Source: an uncultured candidate division Zixibacteria bacterium
GTDB taxonomy: Bacteria; Zixibacteria; MSB-5A5; RBG-16-43-9
Reading direction: 5' to 3'
DNA: 64,000 bases
Assembly (NCBI GenBank): GCA_963713865.1
Contig: OY970208.1
Span: forward strand, 2,659,047 to 2,723,046
Positions 51,001 to 64,000 of the stretch are shown here, in pieces. Each line of letters starts with the position of its first letter. Positions within the stretch are counted from its first letter, which is position 1. Made by a program: the position numbers.

Positions 51001-54000
51001 AGTAGCAAATAAATCTATAATCGATTGCATCGATGCTTATCAAAAAAGTTCAAATGCTCAAATGTTCAAAAGCTCAAAGGTTTTTTCTCCAAACTTCAAA
51101 CTTACAAACTCCAAACTGTTCTTTTGGGCTGGGAAAGGGGTCTTCAAACCCCAAACTAACAAACTCCAAACTATATTTCAGCGGAGGGCGCAGGATTCGA
51201 ACCCGCAAGTCCTTGCGGACGGTGGATTTCAAGTCCACTGCCATACCATTAGGCGAGCCCTCCGATAATTTACATAATTAACCTCTACTCCTCTTAGTAA
51301 AAATCCCTTTAGTCTTCACTAAAATACGTTTAAAAATCCCCTGATATATAACTTTACTTTTTTGAGTTGTCAATGGTTTTGGTTGAAAAAAAATGAGGAG
51401 TGCATCTCTACAGTCCTGGTATTTCGCAGTGCGACCCTTTCAGGGACTGTTGAAAAAGTTCAGAAGACTGTCATTGCGAGCGAAGCGAAGCAATCTTGCT
51501 TCATATTATTCAATAGTTTAAAGATTGCTTCGTCGGTCAAGCGACCTCCTCGCAATGACATCAAAAGGGTTTTTCAAAACACCCTTTCAGGGTCGCTCAG
51601 AGGAATGCAAGTTGTCTTACATTTACCGAGATTTGTGTCAATTTTATATTGAAATCTACCTTTAGAAAAACTAAATTCTTTTTAAATCAACTTTTTTAGA
51701 GGTGGCAGAACTTTATCAACTAATTTTCAAAAAACTAAAGGAATAAAGATGCTCGCTCGTGTCTTATCCAGCGCAGTATTAGGGATTGAGGCTTATATAG
51801 TTGAAGTGGAAACTGATTTATTCCCTTTGGAAAAGGGTTCTGTGACAGATGAGAAGTTAAGAGAGAAAATGAACGGTTATTTAGCGAAGGCTGGCTTAAA
51901 AAAAGTAGATCAGAATCAAAAGGGAGTTATTAGGGATTTTAGAGGTAATGATAAAACAGAGGAGAAAGAGGAAGAAATCACTCCCAATCTACAACCTAAG
52001 AAAGGATTTACGTGGCAAATTTGACCAGAATCACTGTTTAGCTTTAGACAAAAATCTTAAGGATAAAATCTTATCTCAACTAAAAACATACAAGATAGAG
52101 ACTGAAAAAGTTAGGGTGGAGTCTATTTCTGATTTTCTTTCCAGTATAAGCTTAAACACTTTTAAACTCGAAAATTAATTTGCCAAGCATGCGGATAGGT
52201 TATAAAGATTCACCCCTTCATTTATTATTGAGAAAAGCATTCTTGAAATTTCAATTAATATGCTAAAGATGTTTTAACTTAGGTCGATACAAAAAATACA
52301 AAGAAGACAAACCCACAAAAAGTGGGGGGCTATATAGATCAAGAATATTCAGCAGGATAAAAATTTTCATTAAGCCAATTCTTTAGCCCAAAACAGGGGG
52401 GGCAAAGTGGTTCGAAACAAACCACGCATATTGATTCTGAATGATTTTCCAGAAATGGGATGGGTTTTAAGCAGGATTTTAAATTCAAAAGGTTACTCTG
52501 CAGATTCACTCACCTATCCTCCAAATGGAATAGATATAATAGAGAAAGAAAGACCAGACCTCTTAATCTTCGATTTATATTTTTCAGAAGCAATTATACT
52601 TAGAATGCTACAGAAGATAAGGGAGAGTAATCCCTCATTACCGATATTTATCTATTCAGATTTAGTCACTGAGCAATTTGAAAATCAAGTTACCAAATTG
52701 GAGGGCACTGTCTTCTTTCCAAAAGCAGTGAAACAAATATTAGATAGGATCGAAAAATTGTTGCTGAACAATAAAGAAAGTAAATTGGATACTCTTTGTG
52801 TGTCTAAAGATGAAAAAGAGGGGAGGTGATAAAAGATGGCAGTCGAAAAAAACATTGGCTCTTCCAGCTTAGTGGAAGTAGTTGACAGAATCCTGGATAA
52901 GGGTATCGTTATCGATGCCTGGGTCAGGGTCTCCCTGGTGGGAATCGAGCTTCTGGCAGTTGAGGCAAGAGTTGTGTGTGCAGGTGTGGAGACCTTCTTG
53001 AAGTATGCTGAGGCTATCGGTCTTACCCCGACAGCAGCTACAGCCTAAGGTTTATCACCGAAGGGTCTGGAGGAATTTTTGTCGAGGTGTCCTCAGGGGG
53101 GCTAAACCGGAAAGTATACCTCGCCAGAGATTCTTCCAAATAATGGAGTGCAAAACCGTCAAGGTCTTCGACTTGAGCTTTGCCCGTTATAATTGGTAAA
53201 CCTAAAGGTTTACATTCCAAAGGATGGAAAAAGAGATTAGGGAAATGATAACAGTTGAACAGATGAGAGATGTGGCACGGGATTTGATTTCCTCTTATGA
53301 TGCCCGAGTGGATGCTATAGGGACAATAATAGATAACACTTACGAAATTTTGGAGGGTTTTAGAGATAAAAGAGCCAAGCTGAGCAGGGAATTAAAGGAA
53401 ACCCTGGCTAAAAGAGAATCCCTGCGAAGAAAAGATTTCGACAGGATGATGAACGAGATTCTTTCAGATCAGGAAAAAAGAGAGAAGGAGATAAAACAAA
53501 GCTTAAAGAATTTTCTTGAAGAGCAAAAAATACAAGCCGGTGAATTAAGAGACGCTCTGATGAAAGACGAAGCTGACAGGATGAGAAAAGCTCAAATTAA
53601 GATAGAGAAGGGGATAGAGGATATTAAAGTATTATTAAAAAACTTTTGCATACAGCAAGAAGGATTAACAGAAGAGTTAAGGAAACTTTTGAATAAAGAG
53701 AACAATTTGAAAATAAAAGATTTCAGGGATATGATAAAAAACCTATCAACGGGATCCAAATTCGGACAAACCTTAAACAGAGAAAAGGAGGTGAAAAGGA
53801 TGGGATTACAAGATGTGGCAACTGATATTAAGAGCCTGGGACAGGATATGGCTGCCTCTTATGTTGACAGAAAAAGAATGATCGAAGCTCTCCAAAAGGA
53901 GACGAAGTTGAGAGTGAAGGAGGTCAGCGATCTTTTGAGGGGATTCCAGGAAGAGCACGCGGAAAGGAAATCCGAAGTTGCTCAGATGCTGGATACCTTC

Positions 54001-63000: not shown

Positions 63001-64000
63001 ATTGCTGAGGACGAGGTGCAAGTTAAAATAATTTTAAAAAGAGATCATAAAAGATTCAAAGAGCTGCTTCAAAAAATGGAAAACAAGGTGGAGCTCGGGT
63101 TGAAAGCAGTATTTGATGAAAAGTTGATCTATCAGGATCTCCTGGCTAAAAACAAAGAGATCAGGCTAAGGAAAGAAAGGCTGACAAACAAACCTGTGGA
63201 GAAGACTTATGTTCAGCGAATCGAGCTGGGGAGGATAGTCGAAGCGGCGCTGAATGTGGAAAAGGAAGAGGCAAAAAATTTAGCACTGAAAACCTTGAAA
63301 GGATTGTCAGAAAATCACGTGGTCAATGATAACTACGGGGAGAGGATGTTTTTAAATGCTTCCTTCTTAGTAGACAAGGAAAAAGAGCAAGAATTTAGCA
63401 AGAAGGTAGACGATTTAAATGAGAGGTTCGGGCAGAGGGTGAAGCTGAGGTATGTGGAGGGGATACCTCCATTTAATTTTGTCTGTTTGAAGATAGACCT
63501 GGAGGTAAAGGAGGTGGAGTTAGGTGTTGATCGTTGACGATATACTGCTTTTACCCTTTAAGGGGCTTATGGGCGTTTTCAAAACCATTCATGATATGGC
63601 GAAAAAAGAGGTAAATGATGAAAAATATGCCTTGGAAAAATTGATGGAACTCCAGCTGCGCTACGAGATGGGCGAAATCAGCAAGGAGGAATATGAGAAA
63701 GAGGAGAATAAATTTCAAACAAAATTAAATGATATCAGAGAGGCTGAGAACTAAGGTAGAATATAGCCACACTTTAAAAAGGAGTTAGCAAAATGGAAGT
63801 AAACGTGTCGAAATTAATTAGACAAACGCGACAGGAATTAGCTGAGGCAACGGGGTTGAAGCTTTCCTCAACTCTTGGTGTTTCGAAAGATGACAAGGGC
63901 TGGCTTATCTCCGTGGAGATGATCGAGAAGAAATCGATTCCGGATGGAATGGACATCTTAGCAACCTACGAAGCCCGGGTAAACGATGAGGGTGAACTGT

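Follow-up and report, generated by a model that had tools for sequence, protein, structure and literature searches.

A Cdc48-chaperone module in bacterial gas-vesicle gene clusters suggests an unrecognised machinery for vesicle quality control or disassembly

Introduction

Why would a bacterial gas-vesicle (gvp) gene cluster encode a Cdc48/VAT-type double-ring AAA+ ATPase, when such protein-extracting motors (Cdc48/p97) are otherwise characteristic of archaea and eukaryotes? The question is raised by a 64,000-nt stretch of DNA from an uncultured Zixibacteria bacterium (the window; coordinates count from 1 within it, and C1:n denotes the contig's own numbering). The roles of many proteins in the making and degrading of gas vesicles are still open, according to passages of PMC7376271. 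The known gvp clusters, namely those of Halobacterium (p-vac), Anabaena/Microcystis, B. megaterium and Serratia 39006 and the ArsA/Hsp20-bearing ones of Pelodictyon, Polaribacter and Geobacter (passages of PMC2963123), share with the present one gvpA, N, F/L, G, J, K, M and O as well as Hsp20/GvpH, and with its relatives ArsA. Beyond these known clusters, the one described here carries Cdc48, a GvpF/L protein fused to a J-domain, a free DnaJ-type zinc-finger protein and a gene of predicted TIKI/ChaN fold.

An earlier note on this DNA considered the Cdc48 component undescribed, and Cdc48 in gvp clusters is indeed unreported among the literature matches listed, with subscription journals outside the scope and a passing mention possible; nor is a J-domain fusion in gvp clusters described among the matches listed, within the same scope. 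The term 'cdc48' is absent from PMC2963123, and of the papers in which it stands together with 'gas vesicle', one has Cdc48d as a Ni-NTA contaminant and another names it in a reference only. Text search of the supplements of PMC10344784 gave no match in 21 of 22 (one being a scanned PDF), the cluster maps lying in figures outside text search.

Here, we describe the cluster and its relatives, which suggest that gas vesicles are served by a so far unnoticed machinery for quality control or disassembly. In our preferred reading, to which we give a rough probability of 0.55, Cdc48 would be a dedicated segregase and quality-control arm that serves the GvpA/J/M shell proteins, themselves prone to aggregation, in a widespread cluster type. 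The observed gene content, linkage, intact motifs in relatives and lack of a proteasome tail are the grounds from which we infer this mechanism.

Gene content of the cluster

The earlier note placed Cdc48, Hsp20s, a DnaJ-type zinc finger and a GvpL/F-J fusion in the cluster, and had the cluster cross the contig end to 3299. Profile searches found all of these components where reported, and the crossing was borne out by gvpO (63793..64000, profile search), an intact 89-aa frame that runs from the contig end into C1:1-62, so that the cluster continues over the circular junction to C1:3299. All features given below with window coordinates lie on the + strand.

To the left of the cluster is a diverged copy of the yifB/comM upstream region and first 26 codons (51639..51826, 79% over 188 bp), and a full-length yifB/comM lies past the cluster (C1:5470-7005); the copy is likely the left scar of an old insertion of ~18 kb that carried the cluster. 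A single-domain response regulator (52407..52829, PF00072) is followed by gvpA, encoding the major shell protein (52836..53048, PF00741; NF006874, 128 bits, cut-off 100). The gvpC position is taken by a helical repeat/coiled-coil protein (53224..54234) with no family above cut-off, which may have a GvpC-like role; its family occurs in 54 of the 80 loci surveyed below, and in all 32 with at least 8 kb on each side. Next come the free-standing DnaJ-type zinc-finger protein (54407..54772, PF00684; six CxxCxGxG motifs, family in 34/80 loci) and the AAA+ ATPase GvpN (55014..55934, TIGR02640, 349 bits, cut-off 267).

Three small genes lie between gvpN and the chaperones. The first encodes a conserved 72-aa protein (56040..56258, 15/80 loci) that is possibly, on a weak match, AbrB/MraZ-like (a relative matches MraZ with E=0.02 only), the second a 123-aa coiled-coil protein (56255..56626, 44/80 loci; nearest Atlas clusters unnamed), which we take from its position 3' of gvpN to be GvpV-like, and the third a 57-aa protein (56702..56875). 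An archaeal-type Hsp20, a GvpH-like small heat-shock protein (56876..57421, NF041800, 151 bits, cut-off 140), precedes cdc48 (57618..59800), after which come a 59-aa two-helix membrane protein, LiaI/LiaF-like (59797..59976, PF18917; close relatives only, 4/80 loci), the GvpF/L-J fusion with its HPD motif (60015..61223, PF06386 and PF00226; 49/80 loci), and an unnamed 205-aa family of predicted EreA/ChaN/TIKI-like fold, a putative metal-dependent hydrolase (61220..61837). The window ends with a second Hsp20 (61831..62376, PF00011), another single-domain response regulator (62351..62725, PF00072), gvpF (62728..63537, PF06386), gvpG (63524..63754, PF05120) and gvpO. Beyond the junction, at C1:184-3299, are gvpJ, a third Hsp20-like gene, gvpK, gvpL and a gvpA/J/M-family gene.

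The gas-vesicle set is complete for gvpA, gvpN, gvpF/L, gvpG, gvpK and GvpA-like J/M, and vesicles are predicted from the genes alone; arsA is apparently absent from the cluster in this strain. Scans for promoters (16 sites, 21.4 +/- 5.6 expected) and terminators (18, 12.2 +/- 3.1 expected) yielded nothing usable.

The Cdc48 ATPase

Cdc48 is encoded in two frames. The first (57618-59336) contains CDC48_N (92.5 bits) and CDC48_2 (34.8 bits), both above cut-off, and two AAA stretches (TIGR01243, 788 bits), and the second (59336-59800) contains the remainder of D2 (TIGR01243, 146 bits). Two tandem AAA modules with Walker A/B motifs and Arg fingers thus extend across both frames here and lie within one frame of 727-736 aa in relatives. 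As the earlier note had it, a single frameshift splits the gene and relatives are intact: a 1-base gap at ~59327, in a G-run near 59322-59333, is seen against the 95%-identical locus L019. Contigs of a related strain (runs X1 and X2, one sample) have one extra G after 59322 and an intact gene, and runs X3 and X4 have no depth there. The frameshift is likely an assembly error in the G-run, although cdc48 may be truly broken in this strain. The view that this is the genome's only Cdc48/VAT ATPase also held, since tblastn of the genome found one Cdc48, the sole other match being a single-AAA ATPase (C1:289085) that does not match the N-domain.

Among PDB entries T. acidophilum VAT scores highest (779 bits), with p97 lower (~657). 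In D1, Walker A, the pore loop and the Arg finger are kept in 74/74 full-length copies and an aromatic D2 pore loop in 72/74, and both Walker B acids are invariant in the alignment (A2). The pore loops are KFYG and KYIG here, compared with KYYG and KWVG in VAT. Judged from these motifs only, Cdc48 would be a hexamer with ATP-driven unfoldase activity. The gvp Cdc48s have 21 clade-typical residues, 20 in the N-domain and one at its C-terminal edge, a pattern that suggests a specific binding surface.

The archaeal enzymes (VAT, PDB 5G4F; the hsp20-cdc48 heat-shock regulons of A. fulgidus and P. furiosus) share the N-D1-D2 architecture, both ATPase sites and the aromatic pore loops, and an archaeal-type hsp20 next to the gene is found in both settings. 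The present enzyme differs in being bacterial, in its location in a gvp cluster, in its own N-domain signature and in falling outside the named archaeal group, and also in lacking the HbYX tail, in a genome with no 20S proteasome. A penultimate Tyr is found in 0 of the 120 closest homologues, compared with HbYX in 12 of 91 distant representatives. Genes for a 20S proteasome were not found in the genome (94% complete), where the one PF00227 match is an HslV-size gene beside hslU, taken as HslV. The proteasome was accordingly rejected as the Cdc48 partner.

Actinobacterial Cpa is likewise a bacterial Cdc48-family ATPase without a classical HbYX; unlike the enzyme here, it binds a bacterial 20S core and its gene sits with psd/pssA (passages of PMC6017811). 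No Cpa structure is found among the 56 PDB matches of Cdc48 at E<=1e-120. Another passage of PMC6017811 treats non-actinobacterial Cdc48s as sporadic archaeal transfers, without gene context.

Linkage and co-occurrence with gas-vesicle genes

The 80 closest Cdc48 loci, with ~18 phylum-level labels, were surveyed. Nearby gvp genes are present in 71 and an adjacent GvpL/F gene in 56; nine loci have no gvp genes nearby, and in the five of these genomes that were searched GvpL/F was found elsewhere (5/5). Hsp20 is the most constant neighbour of cdc48, lying at most three genes upstream in 66/80 loci; Hsp20, ArsA, GvpL/F(-J) and the 205-aa gene are the neighbours whose presence is conserved between phyla. 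The earlier note had the same upstream genes precede Cdc48 in relatives; for the small gene at 56702 this stands only in close relatives (4/80 loci). The module also occurs on plasmids of cultured Methylocella and Methylosinus.

Its recurrence in bacterial gvp clusters, as previously claimed, holds in samples drawn independently of similarity to this gene. Even samples of three phyla, with centre genomes left out, were scored for CDC48_N in genomes with and without GvpL/F. The family was found in 24/33 GvpL/F-bearing versus 1/217 other genomes in Bacteroidota, in 8/9 versus 6/141 in Desulfobacterota, and in 12/17 versus 21/183 in Chloroflexota, although sampled genomes are kin and these tables therefore overstate independence. 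Within the Bacteroidota sample, CDC48_N is found in all 24 genomes with at least two GvpL/F copies and in none of the nine single-copy genomes. Both families lie within ~5 kb on the same contig in 32 of the 44 genomes bearing both (even samples, centres excluded). A gvp-type Cdc48 is also kept away from the gvp genes, on separate contigs or at a distance of 400 kb (G312, G400, G416, G348, G505, G480), and its retention when unlinked argues against mere hitch-hiking.

Could Cdc48 be a motor for assembly, needed for vesicle formation in this cluster type, that strips GvpA off the GvpF/L or Hsp20 carrying it and hands GvpA on to the nucleus or growth point? The position of cdc48, in the middle of a co-directional run and immediately 5' of gvpF/L in 56/80 loci, would fit such a motor, as would its retention in all 24 multi-copy GvpL/F genomes of the Bacteroidota sample. 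However, the known elongation ATPase GvpN is present in 32/32 full-flank loci, and other clusters lack cdc48, which makes this role rather unlikely. No cdc48 was found in the plasmid gvp stretches examined of Spartinivicinus and Octadecabacter, nor a CDC48_N match in 5/18 GvpL/F-bearing Chloroflexota genomes (including the unpublished G495). In passages of PMC10344784, several gvp clusters produce vesicles in E. coli, which in our control set has no CDC48_N match. The Cdc48 module is one type of gvp cluster and is not universal, some plasmid-borne clusters being without cdc48. The earlier note had counted CDC48_N in 4/61 genomes of the class; in a newly drawn set of 61 relatives it occurs in 8, each a member of the order, against 0/27 outside it.

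A different explanation takes the hsp20-cdc48 pair as a heat-shock cassette that joined the cluster through a shared signal and acts on bulk misfolded protein, not on Gvp proteins. Hsp20 and CDC48 are induced together by the archaeal Phr/HSR1 regulators (passages of PMC5852551), tandems of the two are found without gvp genes on haloarchaeal plasmids, a stand-alone pair is present in G505 and G480, and the cluster in the window resembles an inserted island. In pairwise distances Cdc48 tracks Hsp20 (rho 0.72) better than GvpN (0.35, blurred by GvpN paralogues) or the 205-aa protein (0.33), as would a separately moving stress cassette, and related Cdc48s occur in the 21 Chloroflexota genomes without GvpL/F mentioned above. 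We consider this explanation unlikely: only 1 of the 217 Bacteroidota-sample genomes without GvpL/F has CDC48_N, and that copy comes from another lineage; a 22-row tree group consists of enzymes from gvp-bearing genomes only (SH-aLRT 98); and the fusion partner of the J-domain is itself a Gvp protein.

Phylogeny of the gvp-type Cdc48s

Tree rows were hand-picked subsets, such as 34/80 loci in the narrow tree. All gvp-linked Cdc48s were monophyletic with narrow sampling only (a quick tree that sets 43 rows apart with SH-aLRT 94); with broad sampling this was lost, the FastTree having three groups inside a set of 37 rows that stays unresolved and takes in two non-gvp enzymes. The 22-row core comes from a further quick tree, in which the Methylocella/Methylosinus pair and G480/G505 are unresolved.

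The description 'archaeal-type' given in the earlier note is apt for the fold and for the closest solved structure; in the trees, however, the gvp enzymes lie outside the group of all named archaeal sequences. A recent archaeal donor is unsupported, since the named archaeal sequences group apart (with thin archaeal sampling and unrooted trees), and as the trees have no root no donor is claimed.

The GvpF/L-J fusion and the proposed role of Cdc48

In the fusion protein the GvpL/F domain spans residues 51-293 and the DnaJ domain 311-359; the boundaries given earlier (32-274 and 292-340) describe the same domains from a start 19 codons later. The J-domain scores 45.7 bits (PF00226), and HPD is present in 49/49 GvpL/F-J fusions. 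The J-domain is helical and carries HPD in the loop that joins helices II and III. The predicted structure of the orthologue from L019 matches the GvpF structures 6l5d/4qsg and J-domains, and superimposes on the DnaK-bound J-domain 5nro_B with an rmsd of 1.2 over 52 columns. The fusion is presumably a class C J-domain protein, and the genome has two DnaK genes.

In the preferred reading of Cdc48 as a quality-control arm, hydrophobic GvpA/J/M shell subunits would be bound by GvpF/L and Hsp20, the J-domain of GvpF/L would bring host DnaK to these subunit complexes, and the Cdc48 hexamer would draw through its pore those shell subunits that are misassembled, aggregated or collapsed, the released subunits passing to refolding or to general proteases. 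Passages of the literature describe GvpA2 as prone to aggregation and proteotoxic (PMC12848028), GvpA as bound and probably chaperoned by GvpF (PMC11445434, PMC9501494), and the aggregation of GvpM as prevented by GvpH (PMC9501494). GvpN (TIGR02640) is also a gvp-cluster AAA+ ATPase, proposed to fold or proofread GvpA (passages of PMC11445434), but it is a single-ring AAA_5-type enzyme with a gene of its own, and the same clusters encode Cdc48 besides. Cdc48 would work as a segregase alongside GvpN, the elongation ATPase, and not as a proteasome cap. Several observations count against this reading: the clusters that lack cdc48, the closer tracking of Hsp20 in pairwise distances, the hsp20-cdc48 pairs on haloarchaeal plasmids that have no gvp genes, the kinship of the sampled genomes and, in this strain, a cdc48 that may be broken and a missing arsA.

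More tentatively, a bacterial Cdc48 lineage may have been domesticated as an organelle segregase that, together with Hsp20/GvpH, GvpF-J adaptors and often a TIKI-fold hydrolase, dismantles shells and recycles GvpA. If true, this would supply a missing pathway of vesicle turnover and a counterpart of p97 free of ubiquitin and proteasome. Since clusters of culturable bacteria such as Methylocella and Methylosinus encode an ATPase, a candidate recruiter of DnaK and a small heat-shock protein, vesicle quality control and turnover become testable. Acoustic reporter genes in E. coli are limited by the toxicity of GvpA (passages of PMC12848028), and the module offers candidate parts for better heterologous vesicle expression. 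It also sets many non-actinobacterial Cdc48 genes, hitherto seen as sporadic transfers, in a functional context, and provides a simple system for studying Cdc48 substrate choice without ubiquitin or proteasome.

Response regulators

Response regulators are found in or near many of the clusters (single-domain ones in 35/80 loci), and in some Desulfobacterota a regulator gene lies between the 205-aa gene and hsp20-cdc48. Cdc48 might on these grounds remodel or remove response or other regulators, in the manner of the GvpD-dependent degradation of GvpE in haloarchaea (PMC9501494). Such a switch seems highly improbable, as the genes that constantly adjoin cdc48 encode chaperones and GvpF/L, and many cdc48-bearing clusters have no adjoining regulator.

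The 205-aa protein of putative TIKI/ChaN fold

The 205-aa family has the invariant residues H11, D69, E109, R151-D152 and H177. Its best match to PF01963 has an E of 1.8e-4, with weak matches (E<=1) in 21/36 members. The structural model resembles ChaN (Z 10.0, rmsd 4.0, 156 aligned) and HopBA1 (Z 8.0), with no Foldseek match at E<=0.001; a PDB sequence search with the family alignment gave nothing meaningful, and Atlas look-ups returned unnamed clusters only.

TIKI-family members have protease activity. The predicted fold and the invariant His, Asp/Glu and Arg-Asp resemble the TraB/TIKI group, and the gene often travels with gvp-type cdc48: in the Desulfobacterota sample it occurs in eight genomes, all with GvpL/F and CDC48_N, and it adjoins cdc48 in Methylocella, Methylosinus and loci detached from gvp genes. 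A new AAA+ protease could be envisaged, in which Cdc48 without HbYX feeds Gvp proteins to a 205-aa peptidase that replaces the 20S core. We regard this as very unlikely. ChaN, its best match in fold, binds haem, and the gene was not found in 5/5 further genomes bearing Cdc48 and GvpL/F (a search without positive control). In O. arcticus the gene is flanked by IS elements, gvpN is 25 kb away, and the 43 kb examined contain no cdc48. This locus and the five genomes led us to reject an obligatory partnership of the 205-aa protein with Cdc48. A metagenome scan for the family returned 11 loci, mostly short, and both long ones hold cdc48 and gvp genes.

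Organization of the gas vesicle cluster

The gas vesicle (gvp) cluster fills window positions 52407-64000 as a single run of genes, all in the same direction. The run opens with a response regulator, gvpA, a coiled-coil gene in the gvpC position, a DnaJ-type zinc-finger gene with six motifs, and gvpN, followed by three small genes, hsp20, cdc48, a small membrane protein, a GvpL/F-J-domain fusion (60015-61223, + strand) and a gene for a 205-aa protein (61220-61837, + strand), and then by a further hsp20, a response regulator, gvpF, gvpG and gvpO. The chaperone genes listed in the earlier note (Hsp20, DnaJ-type zinc finger and fusion) are all present in this run. 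With response regulators in the run, turnover of a regulator could be proposed as the role of Cdc48, which we consider highly improbable. The gvpO frame is intact over the circular junction at the contig end, beyond which gvpJ, an Hsp20-like gene, gvpK, gvpL and a GvpA/J/M-family gene follow up to C1:3299, so that the cluster does cross the contig end, as had been claimed; the genome likewise holds a single Cdc48, with no second copy found.

A 188-bp direct repeat (79% identical; window 51639-51826 and, beyond the junction in this genome, L001:5364-5547) brackets the cluster (~18 kb), and duplicates, in diverged form, the upstream region of yifB/comM together with the first 26 codons of the gene. 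The position of the cluster between the copies of this repeat, beside a tRNA-Ser (window 51181-51263), suggests an old inserted island, integrated into comM. A Mutator-family transposase fragment is found at L001:4309-4845.

The earlier note described cdc48 as broken by one frameshift here and unbroken in relatives, and this assembly indeed has two frames, separated by a 1-base gap within a G-run. The frame is open in six relatives (726-736 codons for four, with locus L006 in the 733-736 range, and 593-717 residues where contig or stretch ends limit the length), and related-strain contigs from one sample have an additional G at the gap; an error of assembly is more probable than a pseudogene. 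Relatives also carry a tandem arsA (ArsA ATPase, ~2.2 kb) between gvpO and gvpJ (L019:16464-18518, in a 95%-identical relative's locus), of which only the first codons remain here (L001:88-160), with no copy elsewhere in the genome. Because this gap lies ~100 bases from the contig junction, the absence may be a real deletion or a loss in assembly.

Recurrence of the Cdc48-chaperone module

The records of the best 80 of 181 confirmed GTDB Cdc48 loci (64-95% identity, picked by similarity) bear about 18 different phylum-level labels, Ignavibacteria or Zixibacteria in the case of the nearest. Nearby gvp genes are present in 71/80, Hsp20 lies at most three genes upstream of cdc48 in 66/80, GvpL/F adjoins cdc48 in 56/80, and the J-domain fusion occurs in 49/80, each time with the J-domain HPD motif (49/49). 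The 32 loci flanked by ≥8 kb on each side all contain Hsp20, GvpL/F and GvpN; the 205-aa gene is found in 26, the fusion in 25 and ArsA in 18. Nine loci lack nearby gvp genes; GvpL/F is held elsewhere in all five genomes examined, and the remaining four lie on contigs of <4 kb. In some close relatives, an OMPP1/FadL-family outer-membrane protein gene lies between hsp20 and cdc48 (L021:8715-9902). Some clusters (L027, L069, L143) have two gvpN paralogues besides cdc48 or ArsA, and therefore several ATPases per cluster.

Since the 80 loci had been picked by similarity, paired CDC48_N and GvpL/F family searches were carried out on evenly drawn genomes, leaving the centre genome out of the counts. 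CDC48_N was found in 8/9 genomes with GvpL/F versus 6/141 without in the phylum of G061 (Desulfobacterota label), 24/33 versus 1/217 in that of G063 (Bacteroidota label), and 12/17 versus 21/183 in that of G062 (Chloroflexota label), although the sampled genomes are kin and non-independent, so that Fisher values are overstated. The five Chloroflexota-label negatives include the unpublished G495, without which the count is 12/16. In the Bacteroidota-label sample, CDC48_N occurs in 24/24 multi-copy and 0/9 single-copy GvpL/F genomes. Three genomes of this sample without CDC48_N (G254, G330, G442) have single GvpL/F domains within frames of 889-1918 codons, which are probably non-gas-vesicle genes. 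The two families lie within ~5 kb of each other in 32/44 genomes holding both. Among the window's 61 relatives, CDC48_N is present in 7/11 genomes with strong GvpL/F; of the four negatives, two were examined, and in each the sequence stops at a contig end, in one case within cdc48. The even samples thus agree with the locus set that the module is recurrent in bacterial gvp clusters, as first noted.

Hsp20 and ArsA have already been noted in such clusters (PMC2963123), the available passages of which do not contain 'cdc48', and the parts available of PMC3646047, PMC5374385, PMC7332563, PMC8138137 and PMC10344784 hold nothing on a Cdc48-chaperone module. No description was found in the literature covered, that outside subscription journals and figure-only gene maps, in keeping with the earlier view of the module as undescribed. 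The gas vesicle cluster with its own Cdc48-chaperone module is a real and widespread type, apparently undescribed so far.

The Cdc48 ATPase

The closest solved structure to the window Cdc48 is T. acidophilum VAT, and both rings conserve Walker A, Walker B, Arg fingers and aromatic pore loops. A penultimate Tyr is present in 0/120 closest homologues, and the C-terminal proteasome-docking motif HbYX in 12/91 distant representatives; the genome encodes HslUV and no 20S core. With these motifs in both rings, no penultimate Tyr among the closest homologues and no 20S core in the genome, the enzyme is, judged by sequence, a Cdc48-family member and not a proteasome cap.

In a tree, 22 enzymes, all from gvp-bearing genomes, form a core (SH-aLRT 98), with other gvp-linked copies outside this support, and named archaeal and Rhizobium-type sequences form one separate branch (99). 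The core sits in a wider set without HbYX, where branching order is unsupported. Passages of PMC6017811 attribute Cdc48s outside the actinobacteria to sporadic transfer from archaea. The N-domain, including its edge, has 21 positions with ≥85% conservation in 43 gvp-genome enzymes and ≤35% in 30 others, a signature that common ancestry can also produce; 12 of the 21 residues occur in two enzymes from non-gvp Chloroflexota genomes. Chloroflexota genomes without GvpL/F commonly encode a Cdc48 type whose open frames span ~860-910 codons (loci L178 and L179, in G636 and G652); the two tested are those that share the 12 residues, and they take no supported place in the trees.

Partner proteins and proposed function

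The Hsp20 upstream of the window cdc48 clears the archaeal Hsp20 family cut-off, and Hsp20 distances follow Cdc48 distances (rho 0.72). Archaeal heat-shock regulators are described as co-inducing hsp20 and cdc48 (PMC5852551, in part), and gvp-type Cdc48 is retained in genomes with a scattered gvp cluster; that Cdc48 is a general stress passenger seems quite unlikely. The structure model of a fusion orthologue has a confident GvpF domain and a separate J-domain, and this genome has two DnaK genes. Some Desulfobacterota clusters carry an Hsp70-family and an Hsp20-like gene at the downstream end (L085:19156-20994, L069:21591-22112, L030); these Hsp70-like genes fall into two clusters of sequences, with four loci each, and would provide a local partner for the J-domain.

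The 205-aa protein is one of at least 919 members of an unnamed family, mostly encoded in or near gvp clusters and a candidate new Gvp enzyme. Its model (pLDDT 91) matches ChaN and HopBA1, and members of the family match TraB/GumN weakly. Cdc48 and this protein of ChaN/TIKI-like fold might together constitute an AAA+ protease, a very unlikely arrangement in our assessment; the gene is frequent beside cdc48, not obligatory.

According to the passages available, subunits of the GvpA family form aggregates and are toxic to cells (PMC12848028), GvpA is bound by GvpF, a likely chaperone (PMC11445434, PMC9501494), GvpH prevents aggregation of GvpM (PMC9501494), and vesicle production and degradation are counted as open questions (PMC7376271). 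The composition, linkage and motifs of the module are established; in function, it would combine a holdase, a DnaK recruiter fused to a GvpA-binding fold, and a threading ATPase without a protease tail. We infer that it serves as a dedicated quality-control and disassembly arm (probability roughly 0.55), a function open to direct test in cultured strains. A Cdc48 that instead acts as a motor of vesicle assembly is unlikely.

Plasmid-borne copies

Six of the 51 plasmid Cdc48 matches were inspected. On the Methylocella tundrae and Methylosinus C49 plasmids, cdc48 stands at the end of a gvp cluster, preceded by hsp20/gvpH and the 205-aa gene. The Rhizobium and Microvirga plasmid copies have no gvp context. 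Upstream of two haloarchaeal plasmid copies lies hsp20, and the flanks inspected contain no gvp genes. The stretches inspected of the Spartinivicinus and Octadecabacter gvp clusters contain no cdc48, and the J-domain fusion is present in the Octadecabacter cluster.
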